This document shows, in pieces, positions 980-23,615 of a DNA stretch of 24,080 nucleotides. A program made the translations under genes and the position numbers. The stretch lies in the UHGV virus genome UHGV-1465484. One strand, given 5' to 3'. The notes below the pieces were generated by a model. It was not told the origin of the DNA. It made no database searches and was given only the letters and a program-made list of their open reading frames with translations. The DNA comes from a virus. Within the stretch, counting starts at the first letter, position 1. Each line of letters starts with the position of its first letter.

Positions 980-4660
<3,681 letters not shown>

Positions 4661-14383: not shown

Positions 14384-15127
14384 ATGACAGAGACAGAATC
14401 AGCGATTCTGGCGCACGCCCGGCGATGTGCGCCAGCGGAGTCGTGCGGCTTCGTGGTGAGAGCGCCGGAGGGGGAAAGATATTTTCCCTGCGTGAATATT
14501 TCCGGTGAGCCGGAGGATTATTTCCGGATGGCTCCGGAGGACTGGCTGCAGGCAGAGATGCAGGGTGAGATTGTGGCACTGGTCCACAGCCATCCCGGTG
14601 GTCTGCCCTGGCTGAGTGAGGCTGACCGGCGGCTGCAGGTGCAGAGTGATTTGCCGTGGTGGCTGGTCTGCCGGGGGGCGATTCACAAGTTCCGCTGTGT
14701 GCCGCATCTCACCGGGCGGCGCTTTGAGCACGGGGTGACGGACTGTTACACGCTGTTCCGGGATGCTTATCATCTGGCGGGGATTGAGATGCCGAATTTT
14801 CATCGCGGGGATGACTGGTGGCGTCACGGTCAGAATCTCTATCTGGATAATCTGGAGGCCACAGGGCTGTATCAGGTGCCGTTGTCATCAGCACAACCGG
14901 GCGATGTGCTGCTGTGCTGTTTTGGTTCATCGGTGCCGAATCATGCCGCCATTTACTGTGGTGACGGCGAGCTGCTGCACCATATTCCTGAACAACTGAG
15001 CAAACGAGAGAGGTATACCGACAAATGGCAGCGACGCACACACTCCCTCTGGCGTCACCGGGCATGGCGCGCATCTGCCTTTACGGGGATTTACAACGAT
15101 TTGGCCGCCGCATCGACCTTCGTGTGA
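14384..15127 (+). CDS. K: Tail tip assembly protein gpK (JAB/MPN JAMM-type plus NlpC/P60-like domains); the canonical lambda annotation starts at the internal Met at 14528
   Basis: Frame open from 14342; ATG at 14384 lies 5 nt after the L stop; HSHPGGLPWLSEAD (H-x-H-x7-S-x2-D) at about 14585-14626; Cys/His/His-containing C-terminal half consistent with NlpC/P60. The 199-codon version would start at 14528. Confidence 0.8.
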   Translation: MTETESAILAHARRCAPAESCGFVVRAPEGERYFPCVNISGEPEDYFRMAPEDWLQAEMQGEIVALVHSHPGGLPWLSEADRRLQVQSDLPWWLVCRGAIHKFRCVPHLTGRRFEHGVTDCYTLFRDAYHLAGIEMPNFHRGDDWWRHGQNLYLDNLEATGLYQVPLSSAQPGDVLLCCFGSSVPNHAAIYCGDGELLHHIPEQLSKRERYTDKWQRRTHSLWRHRAWRASAFTGIYNDLAAASTFV

Positions 15128-15666
15128 AAACGGGGGCTGAAGCTATCCGGGCGCTGGCCACACAGCTCCCGGCGTTTCGTCAGAAACTGAGCGACGGCTG
15201 GTATCAGGTACGGATTGCCGGGCGTGATACAGGTGAAACGGAATTATCAGCCCGTCTTAATGAACCGCTGGCAAATGGTGCTGTGATCCATATCGTGCCG
15301 CGTCTGGCAGGAGCCAAAAGTGGCGGTGTGTTTCAGGCTGTGCTGGGGGCGGCTGTTATGGCGGTTGCTATATGGATGCCGGGGGTAGGAATTATGGCGA
15401 GTAATCTGCTGTTTTCTCTCGGTGCCAGTATGACGCTTGGCGGTGTTGCACAGATGCTGGCCCCTAAACCCAAAACCCCCCGCACACAGACAACGGATAA
15501 CGGCAAACAGAACACCTATTTTTCTTCACTGGATAATATGGTTGCCCAGGGCAATGTTCTGCCCGTTCTGTACGGTGAAATGCGCGTGGGATCACGTGTG
15601 GTATCTCAGGAGATCAGCACAGCAGATGAAGGTGATGGTGGTCAGGTTGTGGTGATTGGTCGCTGA
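15025..15666 (+). CDS. I: Tail tip assembly protein gpI
   Basis: 213-aa ORF overlapping the K 3' end by about 100 nt as in lambda; N- and C-terminal parts match lambda I from memory, central part differs and is about 10 codons shorter. Confidence 0.9.
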   Translation: MAATHTLPLASPGMARICLYGDLQRFGRRIDLRVKTGAEAIRALATQLPAFRQKLSDGWYQVRIAGRDTGETELSARLNEPLANGAVIHIVPRLAGAKSGGVFQAVLGAAVMAVAIWMPGVGIMASNLLFSLGASMTLGGVAQMLAPKPKTPRTQTTDNGKQNTYFSSLDNMVAQGNVLPVLYGEMRVGSRVVSQEISTADEGDGGQVVVIGR

Positions 15667-15726: not shown

Positions 15727-18700
15727 ATGGGTAAAGGCAGCAGTAAGGGGCATACCCCGCGCGAAGCGAAGGACAACCTGAAATCCACGCAGCTGTTGAG
15801 TGCGATTGATGCCATCAGCGAAGGGCCGATTGAAGGTCCGGTGGATGGATTAAAAAGCGTGCTGCTGAACAGTACGCCGGTGCTGGACAGTGAGGGGAAT
15901 ACCAATATCTCCGGCGTCACGGTGGTGTTCCGGGCAGGTGAGCAGGAGCAGTCACCGCCGGAGGGATTTGAATCCTCCGGTTCCGAGACGGTGCTGGGTA
16001 CGGAAGTGAAATATGAAACGCCGATCACCCGGACCATCACGTCGGCAAACATCGACCGTCTGCGCTTTACCTTCGGTGTACAGGCACTGGTGGAAACCAC
16101 CTCAAAGGGAGACAGGAATCCGTCGGAAGTCCGCCTGCTGGTTCAGATACAGCGTAACGGTGGCTGGGTGACGGAAAAAGACATCACCATTAAGGGCAAA
16201 ACCACCTCGCAGTATCTGGCCTCGGTGGTGGTGGATAACCTGCCGCCGCGCCCGTTCAATATCCGGATGCGCAGGATGACGCCGGACAGCACCACAGACC
16301 AGCTGCAGAACAAAACGCTCTGGTCGTCATACACCGAAATCATCGATGTGAAACAGTGCTACCCGAACACGGCACTGGTCGGCGTACAGGTGGACTCGGA
16401 GCAGTTCGGCAGCCAGCAGGTGAGCCGTAATTATCATCTTCGCGGGCGCATTCTGCAGGTGCCGTCGAACTATAACCCGCAGACGCGACAATACAGCGGT
16501 ATCTGGGACGGAACGTTAAAACCAGCATACAGCAACAACATGGCCTGGTGTCTGTGGGATATGCTGACCCACCCGCGCTACGGCATGGGGAAACGTCTTG
16601 GTGCGGCGGATGTGGACAAATGGGCGCTGTATGTCATCGGCCAGTACTGCGACCAGTCAGTGCCGGACGGCTTTGGCGGCACGGAGCCGCGCATCACCTG
16701 TAATGCGTACCTGACCACACAGCGCAAGGCGTGGGATGTGCTCAGTGATTTCTGCTCGGCGATGCGCTGTATGCCGGTATGGAACGGGCAGACGCTGACG
16801 TTCGTGCAGGACCGACAGTCGGATAAGGTGTGGACCTATAACCGCAGTAATGTGGTGATGCCGGATGATGGCGCGCCGTTCCGCTACAGCTTCAGCGCCC
16901 TGAAGGACCGCCATAATGCCGTTGAGGTGAACTGGATTGACCCGAACAACGGCTGGGAGACGGCGACAGAGCTTGTTGAAGATACGCAGGCCATTGCCCG
17001 TTACGGTCGTAATGTCACGAAGATGGATGCCTTTGGTTGTACCAGCCGGGGGCAGGCACACCGCGCCGGGCTGTGGCTGATTAAAACGGAACTGCTGGAA
17101 ACGCAGACCGTGGATTTCAGCGTGGGCGCAGAAGGGCTTCGCCATGTGCCGGGCGATGTTATTGAAATCTGCGATGATGACTATGCCGGTATCAGCACCG
17201 GTGGTCGCGTGCTGGCGGTGAACAGCCAGACCCGGACGCTGACGCTCGACCGTGAAATCACGCTGCCATCCTCCGGTACCACGCTGATAAGCCTGGTTGA
17301 CGGAAGTGGCAATCCGGTCAGCGTGGAGGTTCAGTCCGTCACCGACGGCGTGAAGGTAAAAGTGAGCCGTGTTCCTGACGGTGTTGCTGAATACAGCGTA
17401 TGGGGGCTGAAGCTGCCGACGCTGCGCCAGCGACTGTTCCGCTGCGTGAGTATCCGTGAGAACGACGACGGCACGTATGCCATCACCGCCGTGCAGCATG
17501 TGCCGGAAAAAGAGGCCATCGTGGATAACGGGGCGCACTTTGACGGCGAACAGAGTGGCACGGTGAATGGTGTCACGCCGCCAGCGGTGCAGCACCTGAC
17601 CGCAGAAGTCACTGCAGACAGCGGGGAATATCAGGTGCTGGCGCGATGGGACACACCGAAGGTGGTGAAGGGCGTGAGCTTCCTGCTTCGCCTGACCGTG
17701 GCAGCGGATGACGGCAGTGAGCGGCTGGTCAGCACGGCCCGGACGACGGAAACCACATACCGCTTCACGCAACTGGCGCCAGGGAACTACAGGCTGACAG
17801 TCCGGGCGGCAAATGCCTGGGGGCAGCAGGGCGATCCGGCATCGGTATCGTTCCGTATTGCCGCACCGGCAGCGCCGTCGCGGATTGAGCTGACGCCGGG
17901 CTATTTTCAGATAACCGCCACGCCCCATCTTGCCGTTTATGATCCGACGGTACAGTTTGAGTTCTGGTTCTCGGAAAAGCGGATTGCGGATATCAGGCAG
18001 GTTGAAACCACAGCCCGCTATCTTGGCACGGCGCTGTACTGGATAGCTGCCAGTATCAATATCAAACCGGGCCATGATTATTATTTTTACATCCGCAGTG
18101 TGAACACCGTTGGCAAATCGGCATTTGTGGAGGCTGTTGGCCAGCCGAGTGATGATGCATCCGGCTATCTGGATTTTTTCAAAGGCGAGATAGGGAAAAG
18201 CCATCTGGCTCAGGAGCTGTGGACGCAGATTGATAACGGTCAGCTTGCGCCTGACCTGGCTGAAATCAGGACGTCCATTACGGATGTCAGCAATGAAATC
18301 ACGCAGACCGTCAATAAGAAACTGGAAGACCAGAGTGCGGCAATTCAGCAGATACAGAAGGTTCAGGTTGATACAAATAATAACCTGAACAGCATGTGGG
18401 CTGTGAAGCTGCAGCAGATGCAGGACGGACGCCTTTATATCGCGGGTATTGGTGCCGGTATTGAGAACACCCCTGACGGCATGCAGAGTCAGGTGCTGCT
18501 GGCGGCGGACAGGATTGCGATGGTTAATCCTGCGAATGGCAACACAAAGCCGATGTTTGTTGGTCAGGGCGATCAGATATTCATGAACGAAGTGTTCCTG
18601 AAATATCTGACGGCTCCCACCATTACCAGCGGCGGTAATCCTCCGGCATTTTCCCTGACACCGGACGGGCGGCTGACGGCGAAAAATGCCGATATCAGCG

Positions 18701-19206
18701 GTAGCGTGAATGCGAACTCCGGGACGCTCAACAACGTCACGATTAACGAGAACTGTCGGGTTCTGGGAAAACTGTCCGCGAACCAGATTGAAGGCGATCT
18801 CGTTAAAACAGTGGGCAAAGCTTTCCCCCGGGACTCCCGTGCACCGGAGCGGTGGCCATCAGGGACCATTACCGTCAGGGTTTATGACGATCAGCCGTTT
18901 GACCGGCAAATTGTTATTCCAGCGGTGGCTTTCAGCGGTGCCAGACATGAACGGGAGAATAGCGATACTTATTCGTCATGCCGCCTGATAGTGAAGAAAA
19001 ACGGGGCTGAAATTTATAACCGAACGGCTCTGGATAATACTCTGATTTACACGGGTGTTATTGATATGCCTGCAGGCAGTGGCGTAATGACACTGGAGTT
19101 TTCTGTATCAGCATGGTGGGTAAATGGCTGGTATCCCACAGCAAGTATCAGCGATTTGCTGGTTGTTGTGATGAAGAAAGCCACTGCAGGCATCACGATT
19201 AGCTGA
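15727..19206 (+). CDS. J: Central tail fibre / host specificity protein gpJ, with a divergent C-terminal receptor-binding region
   Basis: 1159-aa ORF; the first ~800 residues agree closely with lambda J as recalled ([24 protein letters not shown]...); the remaining ~350 residues are homologous but clearly diverged and 27 residues longer in total. Confidence 0.95.
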
Positions 19207-19224: not shown

Positions 19225-19250
19225 GGGCGCCAGAAATGGCGCCTTTTTTA
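19225..19250 (+). terminator. Rho-independent terminator-like hairpin after J
   Basis: GGGCGCC-AGAAAT-GGCGCC followed by TTTTTT at 19225-19250. Confidence 0.6.
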
Positions 19251-19273
19251 TTGCAGAAAAGCGAGAGGTAATT

Positions 19274-19873
19274 ATGCGTAAATTATGTGCTGTTATTCTG
19301 TCCACAGTAGTCTGGCTGGTCGCCGCTGGTACGCCAGCGAGCGCAGCAGAGCATCAGTCCACACTAAGCGCCGGGTATCTTCAGACCCATACTGATATGC
19401 CCGGCAACGATGACCTGAAGGGCATTAACGTGAAATACCGTTATGAATTTACGGACACGCTGGGGCTGGTGACGTCATTCAGTTATGCCAATGCCAAAGA
19501 TGAGCAAAAAACGCATTACAGCGATACCCGCTGGCATGAAGATTCAGTGCGTAACCGCTGGTTCAGCATGATGGCGGGGCCGTCTGTACGCGTGAATGAA
19601 TGGTTCAGTGCTTATGCGATGGCAGGTGTGGCTTACAGCCGTGTTTCGACTTTTTCCGGGGATTATCTCCGCGTAACTGACAGCAAGGGGAAAACGCACG
19701 ATGTGCTGACCGGAAGTGATGACGGTCGCCACAGCAACACGTCTCTGGCGTGGGGGGCTGGCGTGCAGTTTAACCCGACCGAATCCGTGGCCATTGATAT
19801 TGCTTATGAAGGCTCCGGCAGTGGTGACTGGCGCACTGACGGTTTCATCGTGGGTGTCGGTTATAAATTCTGA
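19274..19873 (+). CDS. lom: Lom-family outer membrane beta-barrel protein (Ail/Lom/PagC family)
   Basis: 199-aa ORF with N-terminal signal peptide (MRKLCAVILSTVVWLVAAGTPASA) and a C-terminus ...IAYEGSGSGDWRTDGFIVGVGYKF that matches lambda Lom from memory; RBS GAGAGG upstream; flanked by terminators on both sides. Confidence 0.9.
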   Translation: MRKLCAVILSTVVWLVAAGTPASAAEHQSTLSAGYLQTHTDMPGNDDLKGINVKYRYEFTDTLGLVTSFSYANAKDEQKTHYSDTRWHEDSVRNRWFSMMAGPSVRVNEWFSAYAMAGVAYSRVSTFSGDYLRVTDSKGKTHDVLTGSDDGRHSNTSLAWGAGVQFNPTESVAIDIAYEGSGSGDWRTDGFIVGVGYKF

Positions 19874-19900
19874 TTAGCCAGGTAACACAGTGTTATGACA

Positions 19901-19926
19901 GCCCGCCGGTTCAGGCGGGCTTTTTT
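19901..19926 (+). terminator. Rho-independent terminator after lom
   Basis: GCCCGCC-GGTTCA-GGCGGGC followed by TTTTTT at 19901-19926. Confidence 0.7.
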
Positions 19927-19931
19927 GTGGA

Positions 19932-22322
19932 GTGGATAGGGCAGCAGTAAAAATCTCAGGTGTGCGGAAAGATGGTGCGGGAGAACCAATACAGAACTGC
20001 ACTATTCAACTGAAGGCAAAGCGTAACAGCACCACGGTACTGGTGAACACGGTGGCCTCTGAAAATCCTGATGAAGCCGGGCGTTACAGCATGGATGTTG
20101 AGTATGGCCAGTACAGCGTCACCCTGCTGGTTGAAGGTTTTCCGCCTTCACATGCCGGGACCATTACCGTCTATGAAGGCTCCAGACCAGGTACGCTGAA
20201 TGATTTTCTCGGTGCCATGACGGAAGATGATGTCATGCCGGAGGCATTGCGTCGTTTTGAACTGATGGTGGAAGAAGTGGCACGCAACGCCGAAGCCGCC
20301 TCTCAGAGCGCAGCGGCGGCAAAGAAATCCGAAACTGCAGCGGCATCATCAAAGAACGCGGCGAAAACCTCAGAAACGAATGCAGCTAATAGTGCACAGG
20401 CGGCAGCGACCTCAAAGACTGCATCGGCAAACTCCGCGACAGCAGCCAAAAAATCAGAAACCAACGCGAAAAATAGCGAGACAGCCGCAAAGACGAGCGA
20501 AACCAACGCAAAGTCCAGCCAGACGGCAGCGAAAACCAGCGAAACGAATGCCAAAGCCAGTGAAACTGCGGCAAAAAACAGCCAGGTTGCAGCAGCCCAA
20601 AGCGAGAGCGCGGCAGCCGGTTCTGCGACTTCAGCAGCTGGATCAGCAACTGCTGCGGCTAACAGCCAGAAAGCTGCGAAGACGAGTGAAACTAACGCAA
20701 AGTCCAGCCAGACGGCAGCGAAGACCAGCGAAACGAATGCCAAAACCAGCGAAACTGCGGCGAAAAACAGTCAGGATGCAGCAGCCCAAAGCGAGAGTGC
20801 TGCAGCTGGTTCTGCAAGCGCGGCGGCTGCTTCTGCCATTGCATCAGCCAACAGTCAAAAAGCTGCAAAAACCAGTGAAACCAACGCAAAGGCGAGCGAG
20901 ACTGCGGCTGCTAACTCGGCGAAAGCATCAGCTGCAAGCCAGACGGCTGCAAAAGCAAGTGAAGACGCAGCCAGGGAGTACGCAAGCCAGGCAGCAGAGC
21001 CGTATAAATATGTCTTACAGCCGCTTCCTGATGTGTGGATACCGTTTAACGATTCACTGGATATGATTACGGGCTTTTCGCCATCATATAAAAAGATTGT
21101 TATTGGTGATGATGAAATAACAATGCCTGGCGACAAGATTGTAAAGTTTAAACGCGCATCAAAAGCAACTTACATTAATAAATCTGGTGTGCTGACAGAG
21201 GCTGCAATCGATGAACCTCGCTTTGAAAAGTATGGATTGCTGATTGAAGGGCAGCGTACAAACCTGTTAATAAACAGCACAAATCCATCAAAATGGAACA
21301 AGTCATCAAATATGATTTTAAATACATCAGGTGTAGATGATTTTGGTTTCCAGTACGCAAAATTCACATTAAAACCAGAAATGGTGGGGCAAACCTCAGC
21401 CATTTCTATTGTCACAGTATCTGGAAGCAAAGGATATGATGTTACCGGCGATGAAAAGTATGTAACTATCTCATGCAGGGTACAAAGTGGGACTCCAAAT
21501 TTAAGATGTCGATTACGATTTGAAGAATATGATGGATCTACCTACAAATTCCTGGGTGATGCTTACTTAAATATGACAGATTTATCGATTGATAAAACTG
21601 GCGGCGCTGCAAGTCGTATTACTGCAAGGGCTGTTAAAAATGAAGCAAGCAAATGGATTTTCTTTGAGGCAACAATTAAGGCACTTGATACAGAAAATAT
21701 GATCGGTGCGATGGTGCAATATGCACCACCAAAAGGGGGAAGCACTGGTGCAGATGATTATATTTATGTTGCAACTCCTCAGGTCGAAGGCGGTTCGTGC
21801 GCTTCTTCGTTTATTATTACTGAGGCAACGCCAGTCACAAGAGCCAGTGATATGGTGAATATACCAACAAATAACAATATCGGTACACCACCTTTAACAT
21901 TTCTAGCTGAAGTTCATACAAACTGGAACGAAACGCCAAATGCAGCACCACGAATTTTTGATACCAGTGGTGGGAGCACAACTCCGGGTCAATATATAAG
22001 TGTTGCTATTAGTTCAACATTATTTCCTGGTGTTACGATGCACAATAAAAACGGTAGTACAGTAGCCGCCGTATCGCCAGTATTATTTGAACAAAAATCT
22101 GTTCTTGGATTTGTTTTAAATGAATCTGGTAATGTGCATTTCGTTAGCAATGCCCAGCATGGGACTCCTAAAACCACGGATCATGTCGGTGTTAAATCTG
22201 GTTATTTCTTCAGGATTGGGGGACAGACTAATAGCGGTCTACGTCATCTTTTCGGTCACATTCGTAATTTTCGTATATGGCATAAAGAATTAACCGATGC
22301 ACAAATGGGAGAGGTAATATAA
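19932..22322 (+). CDS. stf: Side tail fibre protein: lambda-Stf-like N-terminus and Ala/Ser/Thr heptad shaft fused to a non-lambda C-terminal tip with a LamG/ConA-like lectin signature
   Basis: 796-aa ORF; first start in frame is GTG at 19932 (exact start uncertain); residues ~5-120 resemble lambda Stf from memory; residues ~120-335 are KTSETNA-type heptad repeats; the remainder is AT-rich and ends in ...HIRNFRIWHKELTDAQMGEVI. Confidence 0.85.
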   Translation: MDRAAVKISGVRKDGAGEPIQNCTIQLKAKRNSTTVLVNTVASENPDEAGRYSMDVEYGQYSVTLLVEGFPPSHAGTITVYEGSRPGTLNDFLGAMTEDDVMPEALRRFELMVEEVARNAEAASQSAAAAKKSETAAASSKNAAKTSETNAANSAQAAATSKTASANSATAAKKSETNAKNSETAAKTSETNAKSSQTAAKTSETNAKASETAAKNSQVAAAQSESAAAGSATSAAGSATAAANSQKAAKTSETNAKSSQTAAKTSETNAKTSETAAKNSQDAAAQSESAAAGSASAAAASAIASANSQKAAKTSETNAKASETAAANSAKASAASQTAAKASEDAAREYASQAAEPYKYVLQPLPDVWIPFNDSLDMITGFSPSYKKIVIGDDEITMPGDKIVKFKRASKATYINKSGVLTEAAIDEPRFEKYGLLIEGQRTNLLINSTNPSKWNKSSNMILNTSGVDDFGFQYAKFTLKPEMVGQTSAISIVTVSGSKGYDVTGDEKYVTISCRVQSGTPNLRCRLRFEEYDGSTYKFLGDAYLNMTDLSIDKTGGAASRITARAVKNEASKWIFFEATIKALDTENMIGAMVQYAPPKGGSTGADDYIYVATPQVEGGSCASSFIITEATPVTRASDMVNIPTNNNIGTPPLTFLAEVHTNWNETPNAAPRIFDTSGGSTTPGQYISVAISSTLFPGVTMHNKNGSTVAAVSPVLFEQKSVLGFVLNESGNVHFVSNAQHGTPKTTDHVGVKSGYFFRIGGQTNSGLRHLFGHIRNFRIWHKELTDAQMGEVI
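20290..20980 (+). repeat. Internal coding repeat region of stf: 21-nt (7-aa) heptad units, including two ~140-bp direct copies (20487-20626 and 20676-20815) spaced 189 bp apart
   Basis: The two copies were aligned by eye and are about 90% identical; at protein level AAKTSETNAKSSQTAAKTSETNAK(A/T)SETAAKNSQ(V/D)AAAQSESAAAGSA occurs twice. Confidence 0.8.
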
Positions 22323-22603
22323 TGCGAGACTTAATTATCAAATTCACAGACAAGGCCGACTTTTCGGCCTTTATGGATAGCATTGGTTATGACGATGACG
22401 AGGTGATGCAGAACAATGTTCTCATTGATGTGATAGGTAACGTGTACAAAGAAACCGGGGAAATTACTGAAGATGGCGAGCCGGTATGTGTTAAGGAAGA
22501 CGGATATTTTGTAAACGTGCGCATCATTAATGATGTGAAAACACCGTCAATATTCGATGAATACGCGGTTGTTGTTGAGCATCAACTTCGTGGCTGGATG
22601 TGA
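22322..22603 (+). CDS. Hypothetical acidic 93-aa protein, translationally coupled to stf
   Basis: ATG at 22322 overlaps the stf stop (TAATG); open frame of 93 codons in the same operon orientation; no family recognised. Confidence 0.6.
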   Translation: MRDLIIKFTDKADFSAFMDSIGYDDDEVMQNNVLIDVIGNVYKETGEITEDGEPVCVKEDGYFVNVRIINDVKTPSIFDEYAVVVEHQLRGWM

Positions 22604-22612
22604 GGGAGACAA

Positions 22613-23317
22613 ATGGCTACATCGACAGTAATTCCTGGAGATATCACCACGCTAAAGGGAGATGTCAGTAAAACTAAGGAAGATATTTCCTCAATTAACG
22701 GAAAAGTATCAACGCTTCAGATTGATATGACCAGTGCAAAGCAGGATATCAGCACCAGATACACAAAAACTGAAGTTGATAATAAGCTGAAAAACAAAGT
22801 GGAAGCGAACGATCTGGAAAGCGGTCGTTATGGCGGTGATTTTTACCCGCTGACTGGCCGCGAAGCGTTTTATTTATGGGGGTTGGGCACGACTACTGCT
22901 GCGGCAAACCTTTATCTTAATCCTGACCCTGCAATTTCGTCTGTACTGCGGTCCACATCGTCTATCCGCTATAAACATTCAGTAGAGACGATAGATTCAG
23001 AGCACGCCGATGTCATTTTCAGGATGCGCCCTGTGTGGTACAGGTCGCAATGCGAAAATGACAGGCGTGACTGGGGGTTCTACGGATTGATTGCCGAGGA
23101 AGTAGGAGAAATTGCCCCTCAGTTTGTACACTGGCGACCAGCTAACGAAGATGATGCTCCTGAAGCTATTTCCAGCAATGGCCTTGTTGCCGAAGGTGTA
23201 ATGTACGAACGTCTGGTTGTTCCACTGATTCACCATATCCAGAAGCTGACTGAAAGAGTTGATGAACTTGAGTCAGAATTAAAGTTGTTATTAACTTCCC
23301 GAAGCGATATCGGATAA
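22613..23317 (+). CDS. Short fibre-like protein: N-terminal 11-residue-periodicity repeats plus C-terminal peptidase-S74-type intramolecular chaperone domain
   Basis: ATG at 22613 preceded by GAGGGAG; 234 aa; S116-S-I-R-Y-K121 matches the S-x-x-R-x-K Ser/Lys dyad spacing of S74 chaperone domains; GFYGLIAEEVGEIAPQFV ... LVVPLIHHIQKLTERVDELESELKLL is the typical S74 C-terminal pattern. Confidence 0.75.
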   Translation: MATSTVIPGDITTLKGDVSKTKEDISSINGKVSTLQIDMTSAKQDISTRYTKTEVDNKLKNKVEANDLESGRYGGDFYPLTGREAFYLWGLGTTTAAANLYLNPDPAISSVLRSTSSIRYKHSVETIDSEHADVIFRMRPVWYRSQCENDRRDWGFYGLIAEEVGEIAPQFVHWRPANEDDAPEAISSNGLVAEGVMYERLVVPLIHHIQKLTERVDELESELKLLLTSRSDIG

Positions 23318-23327
23318 AGGAGGAATA

Positions 23328-23615
23328 ATGGATATAACACCTTTCCTTCATGCACTTTGTGCTGTGGCTGCGCAGGTACTGGTTGGTCTTTTTACCGGAA
23401 ACTGGGCTTACGGGGCGATAGCCGGTTGTACGTTCTTCATTGCGCGTGAACACACCCAGGCAGAATATCGCTGGATCGAAATGTTCGGGCATGGCAAGCG
23501 AATGAATATGCCGTGGTGGGGCGGTTTTGATCCGCGTGTTTGGGATGTGGCAAGCCTGATAGATTTTGCTGTGCCGGTGGTGGCGTGTCTGCTGGTCTGG
23601 CTGTTGATCCGTTAA
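23328..23615 (+). CDS. Small hydrophobic protein (95 aa), probable membrane protein or lipoprotein; candidate moron
   Basis: Strong SD (AAAGGAGG) 4-5 nt before ATG at 23328; hydrophobic N-terminal segment (residues ~5-33) ending in a lipobox-like I-A-G-C, and a hydrophobic C-terminal segment (ASLIDFAVPVVACLLVWLLI). Confidence 0.7.
   Translation: MDITPFLHALCAVAAQVLVGLFTGNWAYGAIAGCTFFIAREHTQAEYRWIEMFGHGKRMNMPWWGGFDPRVWDVASLIDFAVPVVACLLVWLLIR

Follow-up and report, generated by a model that had tools for sequence, protein, structure and literature searches.

A mosaic lambda-like J protein that joins a phage-21-type shaft to a receptor-binding domain of the VT1-Sakai/1A2 family, with OmpC as the probable receptor

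The tail tip gene J of a lambda-like (Lambdavirus-type) Escherichia coli prophage has been pieced together by recombination from exchangeable modules, with a hub like that of lambda followed by a shaft of the phage 21 type and by a receptor-binding domain related only distantly to that of lambda. Judged from its relatives, the encoded protein probably uses OmpC and not LamB as its receptor, and the OmpC proteins it accepts, a range likewise suggested by homology, are probably variants other than that of K-12. The original prediction of a receptor different from lambda's is thereby supported indirectly, by a domain that is 40.7% identical to lambda and 92% identical to VT1-Sakai and gpJ 1A2.

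Within the 24,080-nucleotide stretch analyzed here (UHGV virus genome UHGV-1465484, referred to as the window), J encodes the tip attachment protein or central tail fiber and occupies positions 15727..19206 on the plus strand. The ORF of 3480 nt is uninterrupted and specifies 1159 aa. Its product contains full-length matches, each beyond the gathering threshold and arranged as in lambda, to six Pfam domains (FNIII-A_GpJ, Phage-tail_3, Ig_J, Ig_J_second, Phage_Tail_Tip, and Ig_GpJ_C). The protein is an ordinary recombinant. RefSeq entry WP_021546799.1 (E. coli TCM3e1) is the same protein with 0 differences, and copies of the 3' segment that are 100% identical occur in many complete E. coli genomes.

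Comparison with lambda J (NC_001416 15505..18903; 1132 aa) bears out the description that the first approximately 800 residues are close to lambda and that the remainder is only loosely similar and makes the protein 27 residues longer. Over the C-terminal 350 residues, identity is about 50%, clearly short of the 95% or more that would characterize a lambda-type end, and the motif quoted as the start of the divergence is found at aa 813 to 839, within the stretch assigned to it. The diverged end is not the single uniform block it was taken for, however, as a conserved island at aa ~950 to 1020 splits it in two. We therefore distinguish four blocks. Block A (aa 1 to 800; 15727..18126, plus strand) is the lambda-like hub with its FNIII and Ig domains and shows 97.9% identity to lambda (783/800) and 97.5 to 99.4% to phage 21, PhiR47_1, PhiR55_1, and h434; from its identity to lambda J, whose structure is solved, the protein would form a trimer at the tail tip that is required for adsorption. 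Block B (aa 801 to 959; 18127..18603, plus strand) falls to 46.5% with 28 gap positions. Block C (aa 960 to 1020; 18604..18786, plus strand) returns to 82.0% and is conserved at 80 to 98% among the six J proteins compared; this junction is the likely crossover zone. Block D (aa 1021 to 1159; 18787..19203, plus strand), the receptor-binding domain, drops to 40.7%.

The mosaic is equally evident at the nucleotide level in the comparison with the J genes of lambda, phage 21, PhiR47_1, PhiR55_1, and h434. Nucleotide identity is 96 to 99% over J nt 1 to 2400. A drop from 97% to 27 to 51% takes place within a single 90-nt interval and marks a recombination boundary, not chance drift. Mismatches to lambda become dense from approximately J nt 2400 to 2412, and those to PhiR47_1 end at approximately J nt 2877. 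PhiR47_1 J combines a short shaft of the lambda type with a receptor-binding domain of the window type, and phage 21 J combines a shaft of the window type with a different receptor-binding domain; hence, shaft and receptor-binding domain assort independently. Together, the block-wise identities and the mismatch maps contradict one shared tree for blocks A, B, and D.

Block B corresponds to the alpha-helical shaft and upper fiber prism of lambda. It is 96.9% identical to phage 21 (95 to 100% at the nucleotide level) and 99.4% identical to PhiR55_1, compared with 46.5% for lambda and PhiR47_1 and 47.2% for h434, and the near-identity to phage 21 extends across aa 801 to 959, including 28 residues that lambda lacks. 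In the pairwise alignment, these extra residues fall in two gaps within aa ~836 to 866 (18232..18324, plus strand), that is, in the shaft and not in the receptor-binding end. They account for the greater length of the protein, the receptor-binding domain itself being 1 residue shorter than that of lambda. A single-sequence AlphaFold2 (AF2) model of the shaft, in which only the long helix is usable given an overall confidence of only 52, has aa ~840 to 899 as one continuous helix (pLDDT, 73 to 86 over aa ~845 to 885), which hints that the insertion may be helical and the shaft correspondingly longer; if the helix is continuous, the 28 residues would lengthen the fiber by roughly 4 nm. Phage 21, with the same Block B, uses LamB, so that this block is uninformative on receptor choice. 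Accordingly, we rejected the view that the whole C-terminal 350 aa form one receptor determinant; the first half of the diverged stretch is shaft, and neither the length of J nor its diverged shaft is a receptor signal.

In the receptor-binding domain, Pfam PF12421 (Ig_GpJ_C) covers aa 1029 to 1159 (E value, 6.8e-37), and identity over Block D is 98.6% to PhiR47_1, 92.1% to VT1-Sakai (139 columns, no gaps), and 91.4% to PhiR55_1, as against 59% to phage 21, 56 to 57% to A8 and phi330, 40.7% to lambda, and 38.5% to h434. For gpJ 1A2, the value is 92.1% over the 127 legible columns, again without gaps; its C terminus was extracted from supplementary material of PMC11338833, where text recognition had lost letters and left ~12 of the 139 domain positions illegible, and it was aligned at the protein level with frameshifts allowed. 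The 1A2 gene appears to be recoded (DNA identity to the window is only 68%). At every legible position, the receptor-binding domain of VT1-Sakai J equals that of gpJ 1A2. Close identity to the 1A2 type thus extends across the whole domain without indels. The LamB-type domain of lambda J (aa ~990 to 1132, including L1 to L4), on the other hand, is matched at just the 40.7% given above, and all loops differ. Sequence matches in the PDB are gpJ 713 of A8 (9wca/9wcb; E value, 4e-132) and lambda gpJ (8xcj/8xck), and an AF2 model of aa 961 to 1159 (pLDDT, 75) retrieves 9wca, 8xck, 9wcb, and 8xcj as its best Foldseek matches (E values, 1e-16 to 1e-18). The domain therefore belongs to the VT1-Sakai/1A2/PhiR47_1 family and has an Ig-like fold.

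Polymorphism inside this family clusters in four inter-strand loops, as seen when an alignment of homologues is mapped onto the AF2 model. These homologues were mostly gene fragments, suited to mapping polymorphism and to serving as an AF2 alignment but uninformative on gene context. Relative to 1A2, the window protein differs at 11 positions (window residue first: R1073K, R1076K, N1078H, S1079T, T1081I, K1090R, T1109S, S1118H, V1120H, W1131L, and G1134N), and these substitutions, too, are concentrated in loops. Loop a (aa 1035 to 1043, RDSRAPERW; 18829..18855, plus strand), which lies in the inter-strand loop 1032 to 1045 of the model, is polymorphic in the family; it aligns with T918-Y921 of phi330 but is 6 aa longer, and in 434 the corresponding longer loop is predicted to contact OmpC. 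The most polymorphic patch of the family is the loop b region (aa 1070 to 1083; 18934..18975, plus strand), which holds 5 of the 11 differences (R1073K, R1076K, N1078H, S1079T, and T1081I). The segment of phi330 aligned with it is the hairpin E953-S962, which according to prediction projects into the barrel of OmpC. Loop c (aa 1116 to 1121, AGSGVM; 19072..19089, plus strand; inter-strand loop 1115 to 1118 in the model) carries S1118H and V1120H, and loop d (aa 1131 to 1137, WWVNGWY; 19117..19137, plus strand) carries W1131L and G1134N with respect to VT1-Sakai/1A2. Porin-facing loops were assigned by alignment to the published contact hairpins of phi330. By this measure, two of the four variable loops correspond to hairpins for which entry into OmpC or contact with it is predicted. 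Loops b and d are aligned with such hairpins, and 7 of the 11 substitutions are located within or next to these two loops.

What is known of the relatives bears indirectly on the receptor. The chimeric gpJ 1A2 (Brodel et al., Nature 2024, PMC11338833), whose receptor-binding C terminus is of the VT1-Sakai/O157 prophage J type and whose last 29 residues are identical to those of the window J, carries the short shaft of lambda, in contrast to the long shaft found here. It delivers DNA through OmpC in cells deleted of lamB (PMC11338833; bioRxiv 10.1101/2025.02.28.640725). Particles equipped with it enter lamB/ompC-deleted K-12 provided with EDL933 OmpC but not with K-12 OmpC, and they are active on most natural OmpC variants, of which 74 have been identified in E. 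coli (PMC11338833 supplement). Since the window domain is 92% identical to 1A2 and lacks indels, OmpC is predicted for the window J as well. The J proteins of A8 (9wca; 9wcb with OmpC) and of the Stx phage phi330 (PV189401) share the fold and are experimentally OmpC dependent, which shows that trimeric OmpC can be bound by members of this domain superfamily; they have a shorter loop a and a longer loop b than the window protein and, unlike 1A2, accept K-12 OmpC. Among natural phages, PhiR55_1 (PV340571) has the best full-length match (97.5% nucleotide identity), a J of 1159 aa with the long shaft and a Sakai-like allele of the receptor-binding domain, whereas J of PhiR47_1 (PV340566) has 1131 aa. 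Both phages have a tape-measure gene that is different from, and longer than, that of the window. For the PhiR phages with a domain of this family, the strain on record is ECOR13 or E. coli C and in no case MG1655, a weak but consistent indication. Papers using the PhiR phages (PV3405xx) contained only their ManYZ dependence, given in the SNIPE study both as a preprint and as published in Nature, and no outer membrane receptor data; the literature on receptors of ECOR13 lambdoid phages and on the 2G7b/Lambda_ev records yielded nothing useful. A 2026 receptor prediction preprint deals with GpJ of Drexlerviridae, to which the lambda C terminus is stated to be nonhomologous.

Receptor choice in these proteins is labile, which complicates any extrapolation from identity. 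Lambda gpJ (NP_040600; PDB 8iyk, 8xck, and 8xcj) resembles the window J in gene position, six-domain architecture, and C-terminal Ig-like fold, but its shaft is 28 aa shorter and its receptor is LamB, of which the window J is most likely independent. The native receptor of phage 21 (OL657228) is also LamB (PMC11336670). As two domains so dissimilar, those of lambda (40.7%) and phage 21 (59%), share LamB as their native receptor, distance from lambda alone is no proof of a new receptor, and one might argue that the window domain still binds LamB, having diverged through adaptation to LamB variants or under immune or protease pressure, the more so as its shaft module is that of phage 21. We consider this quite unlikely, because the nearest characterized relative, 1A2 (92%), functions in lamB-deleted cells and needs OmpC and because loop lengths are the same in 1A2 and the window allele, while phage 21 has indels in loops a and b. 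Nor does OmpC use by 1A2 settle the matter: one J mutation allows phage 21 to use OmpC and a few more allow it to use OmpF (PMC11336670), lambda gains OmpF through a single or few J mutations, and the domains of phage 21 (LamB) and A8/phi330 (OmpC) are 81% identical despite their different porins. With 7 of the 11 changes at or beside predicted contact loops, 92% identity is therefore no guarantee of the same receptor, and the loop substitutions might have retargeted the allele to OmpF or another porin or have led to the use of two porins. This, too, seems unlikely, given that most of the substitutions are conservative (R/K, S/T, K/R, and T/S), that the polymorphic positions vary in many natural alleles in a manner resembling tuning to OmpC alleles, and that OmpC itself is highly polymorphic in E. 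coli.

A third reading, in which the diverged C terminus is a decaying remnant of a defective prophage without adsorption function, appears very improbable. Many lambdoid prophages of E. coli are indeed defective, VT1-Sakai J is annotated as split by mutation, and PGAP marks the neighboring stf as a pseudogene in an identical prophage. The J ORF is nevertheless unbroken with all its domains full length, the identical protein and 3' segments recur in other genomes, and the plaque-forming PhiR47_1 and PhiR55_1 carry domains that are 98.6% and 91.4% identical.

Adsorption may proceed as suggested by homology to the lambda-LamB and A8-OmpC complexes. The loops of the three receptor-binding domains would enter the opening of a trimeric outer membrane porin, and the domains would be spread apart upon binding; transmitted upward through the fiber prism and the helical shaft, this movement would open the tail tip so that DNA can be ejected. 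The most plausible effect of the 11 substitutions, most of which lie in contact loops, would be to adjust the range of OmpC variants that the protein accepts. Somewhat speculatively, the loop-centered substitutions of the window allele and PhiR47_1 may encode a porin specificity distinct from that of 1A2/Sakai, which may comprise another subset of the natural OmpC variants or, less likely, another porin. In that case, natural alleles would form a readable code matched to E. coli OmpC polymorphism.

The receptor-binding domain family is common and already catalogued, and our finding is known biology without a new mechanism. It does place a very common prophage J allele in a receptor-binding family of which one member has been shown by experiment to use OmpC, and it points to the conserved junction at aa 960 to 1020 and the four variable loops as sites for predicting or engineering the host range of lambda-like particles. 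The practical value is modest; comparable engineering is already in use for gut-targeted delivery vectors.

The ORFs around J correspond one after another to the lambda genes H, M, L, K, I, lom, and stf, with J located as in the H-M-L-K-I-J-lom-stf arrangement. The suggestion that the adsorption apparatus was replaced in its entirety goes too far, as aa 1 to 800 of J as well as K, L, M, and H are 96 to 98% lambda-like and gpI differs from lambda in its central segment only; the parts that are not lambda-like are limited to distal J, Lom, and distal Stf. Just 3' of the J stop codon, at 19225..19254 on the plus strand, lies a terminator-like hairpin (8-bp stem with 6 GC pairs) followed by the T-run TTTTTATTGC; in phage 21, a terminator is annotated at the equivalent site.

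By its sequence, the open reading frame at 15727..19206 (+) is gene J of a lambda-like phage. It spans 3480 nt, encodes 1159 residues, and is diverged in its 3' third. The frames around it correspond to lambda nu1, A, B, E, V, H, M, L, and K in lambda order (95.6 to 100% amino acid identity), with I, J, lom, and stf following K. Pfam recovers the full gpJ architecture, namely, FNIII-A_GpJ, Phage-tail_3, Ig_J, Ig_J_second, Phage_Tail_Tip, and Ig_GpJ_C in that order, the last at residues 1029 to 1159. Protein alignment with lambda J (1132 residues, NC_001416) gave 97.9% identity for residues 1 to 800, 46.5% with 28 gap positions for residues 801 to 959, 82.0% for residues 960 to 1020, and 40.7% for residues 1021 to 1159. 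The C terminus has thus diverged from lambda, as the original prediction held; the motifs quoted there are present, and identity over the last 350 residues, checked against a figure of at least 95%, fell short by a wide margin. Divergence had been taken to run from about residue 800 to the end, which is borne out by the two diverged blocks but not by the conserved island (residues 960 to 1020) that interrupts them. Similarly, J is indeed 27 residues longer than its lambda counterpart, but the extra length stems from a 28-residue insertion in the shaft (residues ~836 to 866) rather than from the receptor-binding end.

Lambda gpJ is composed of hub domains, two FNIII domains, an alpha-helical shaft that includes residues 841 to 861, a beta-sheet prism, and, for receptor binding, an Ig-like domain with four contact loops (Ge and Wang, PMC11101478). 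Residues 801 to 959 of the window J correspond to the lambda shaft and upper prism. In a single-sequence AF2 model of poor overall quality (pLDDT 52), residues ~840 to 899, insertion included, lie in one long helix (pLDDT 73 to 86), hinting at a shaft longer than that of lambda; were the insertion a continuous helix, the fiber would gain roughly 4 nm.

J is a mosaic of independently assorting modules, a product of the module exchange that is usual among lambdoid phages. Its DNA was compared with that of lambda, phage 21, PhiR47_1, PhiR55_1, and lambda h434 by means of mismatch maps and identity in sliding windows. Nucleotides 1 to ~2400 are about 96 to 99% identical to all five, and nucleotides ~2880 to 3060 are kept in all five. 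Nucleotides ~2400 to 2880 (residues 801 to 959) match phage 21 and PhiR55_1 at 95 to 100% and lambda, PhiR47_1, and h434 at 27 to 77%, whereas nucleotides ~3060 to 3480 (residues 1021 to 1159) match PhiR47_1 at 96 to 100%, PhiR55_1 at 79 to 98%, and phage 21, lambda, and h434 at about 36 to 70%. Hence, PhiR47_1 combines the short lambda-type shaft with a receptor-binding domain of the window type, while phage 21 has the long window-type shaft and a different receptor-binding domain. Brodel et al. joined foreign gpJ C termini to lambda at residue 964, within the conserved junction (PMC11338833).

When the last ~150 residues of J were searched against phage genomes, receptor-binding domains resolved into discrete families. 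Closest to the window domain are those of PhiR47_1 (98.6% identity), 2G7b (94%), the 1A2 type carried by VT1-Sakai, PPompW, and many O157 Stx1a/Stx2a prophages (~92%), and PhiR55_1 (91.4%). More distant are phage 21 (59%; native receptor LamB), A8/phi330 (56 to 57%; OmpC), the LamB-binding lambda, and h434 (38.5%), with OmpC cited for phage 434 in PMC12502783. The 1A2 gene, taken from the supplement of PMC11338833, appears recoded and came as machine-read text with dropped letters, and was therefore compared with proteins by frameshift-tolerant alignment. At every legible position its C terminus equals VT1-Sakai J, and over these positions it shares 92.1% identity with the window domain, without indels. 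VT1-Sakai J itself (L007, 485-3957) is annotated as two overlapping truncated coding sequences ("truncated protein by a mutation"), so that a prophage with a 1A2-type C terminus is itself defective in J.

The receptor is very likely a trimeric porin of the OmpC/LamB class. An AF2 model of residues 961 to 1159 (pLDDT 75) best matched PDB entries 9wca, 8xck, 9wcb, and 8xcj; 9wcb shows A8 gpJ bound to OmpC, and A8 differs hardly at all from the J protein of Stx phage phi330. The non-lambda receptor originally proposed is a reasonable suggestion, and the literature supplies a specific candidate in OmpC, which we consider the probable receptor. In work by Brodel et al. (PMC11338833; Nature 2024), lambda particles with the natural A8 or 1A2 gpJ C terminus showed OmpC-dependent delivery into cells without lamB; A8 particles took K-12 and EDL933 OmpC, whereas 1A2 particles rejected the K-12 protein but took the EDL933 type and most natural variants. 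Phi330 forms no plaques on a K-12 ompC deletion, and complementation rescues it (PMC12502783). The loop lengths of the window domain are those of 1A2, its nearest tested relative. For natural phages of the PhiR set with this domain family, the recorded hosts are ECOR13 or E. coli C and in no case MG1655, which circumstantially fits the failure of 1A2 on K-12 OmpC.

Certainty is tempered by the lability of receptor choice. The receptor-binding domains of phage 21, a LamB phage, and A8, an OmpC phage, are 81% identical, and a single J mutation gives phage 21 OmpC use, with further mutations leading to OmpF (PMC11336670). Given this lability and the 11 substitutions relative to 1A2, we hold OmpC as probable only. 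Retention of LamB, the receptor of both lambda and phage 21, seems quite improbable beside the OmpC dependence of 1A2; use of another or an additional porin, for which the phage 21 mutants offer a precedent, is unlikely. The feature is nonetheless an ordinary one: the receptor-binding family has already been exploited experimentally, and the J allele is catalogued and very common.

The 11 differences from window to 1A2/Sakai (R1073K, R1076K, N1078H, S1079T, T1081I, K1090R, T1109S, S1118H, V1120H, W1131L, and G1134N) concentrate in inter-strand loops of the AF2 model, and polymorphism inside the family clusters in the same four patches. Residues ~1075 to 1080 align with phi330 hairpin E953-S962, predicted to point into the OmpC barrel, and residues ~1131 to 1137 with hairpin A1015-P1020, predicted to touch the OmpC rim (PMC12502783). 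The high polymorphism of OmpC (74 variants; PMC11338833 supplement) makes it most plausible that the substitutions adjust the range of OmpC variants accepted. Homology to the lambda-LamB and A8-OmpC structures suggests that, at the fiber tip, each of the three receptor-binding domains would push its loops into the porin trimer, and that their lower ends would move apart. The beta-prism would then be compacted and rotated by new hydrogen bonds, the helical shaft would flip, part of it turning into beta structure, and the FNIII strings would part, opening the hub for ejection (PMC11101478). Nothing in the J sequence suggests a departure from this lambda scheme.

The claim that the whole adsorption apparatus had been exchanged was overstated. 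K, L, M, and H are 96 to 98% identical to lambda, and gpI (15025-15666; 213 versus 223 residues) is 81% identical, with all differences, including a 10-residue deletion, within residues ~68 to 135 and with identical ends (N-terminal 67 and C-terminal ~80 residues). This segment looks like another small exchanged module in an otherwise lambda-identical protein; it spans the H1/H2 hydrophobic helices, proposed to be transmembrane capable in lambda (PMC11101478). The distal host-contacting parts (J end, Lom, and Stf tip) differ from lambda, while the tail-tip scaffold does not. The Lom homologue (19274-19873; 199 residues, full-length Ail_Lom match) is 45% identical to lambda Lom. The product of stf (19932-22322; 796 residues) is lambda-like only in its N-terminal ~275 residues, at 61%, and a GC drop to ~0.40 at 21000-22500 suggests a foreign distal tip. 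A repeat at 20475-20902 in stf (189-nt unit, 2.3 copies, 83% matches) shows periodicities of 21 and 42 nt nested within it, along with a strong AT skew (0.41).

Across 24,003 nt, the window and a prophage in E. coli TCM3e1 (NZ_CP066806.1) share 99.96% identity, and the window J equals RefSeq WP_021546799.1 (PGAP, "phage attachment tail tip protein J") with 0 differences. Identical copies of 18100-19206 occur in many complete E. coli genomes, and some match to it in 4201 of 5426 genomes. The TCM3e1 prophage adjoins a truncated icd-like gene (e14/icd integration region) and has a bor-like iss gene ahead of it; its identical stf is called a pseudogene missing the C terminus by PGAP, but the frame is open in the window. 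Phage matches start at ~245, which corresponds to the first base of several linear phage records, so that the window begins upstream of their start, as for an integrated prophage. GC-rich terminator-like hairpins with T-runs lie directly after the J stop codon (19225-19254), matching in position an annotated phage 21 terminator, and after lom (19900-19931). After stf (22322-23615), where lambda has tfa, lie three small reading frames of 93, 234, and 95 residues that also occur in phages like PhiR47_1 and PhiR55_1; the 93- and 95-residue products had no Pfam match, and in the 234-residue product residues 116 to 172 form a Peptidase_S74 (chaperone of endosialidase) domain.
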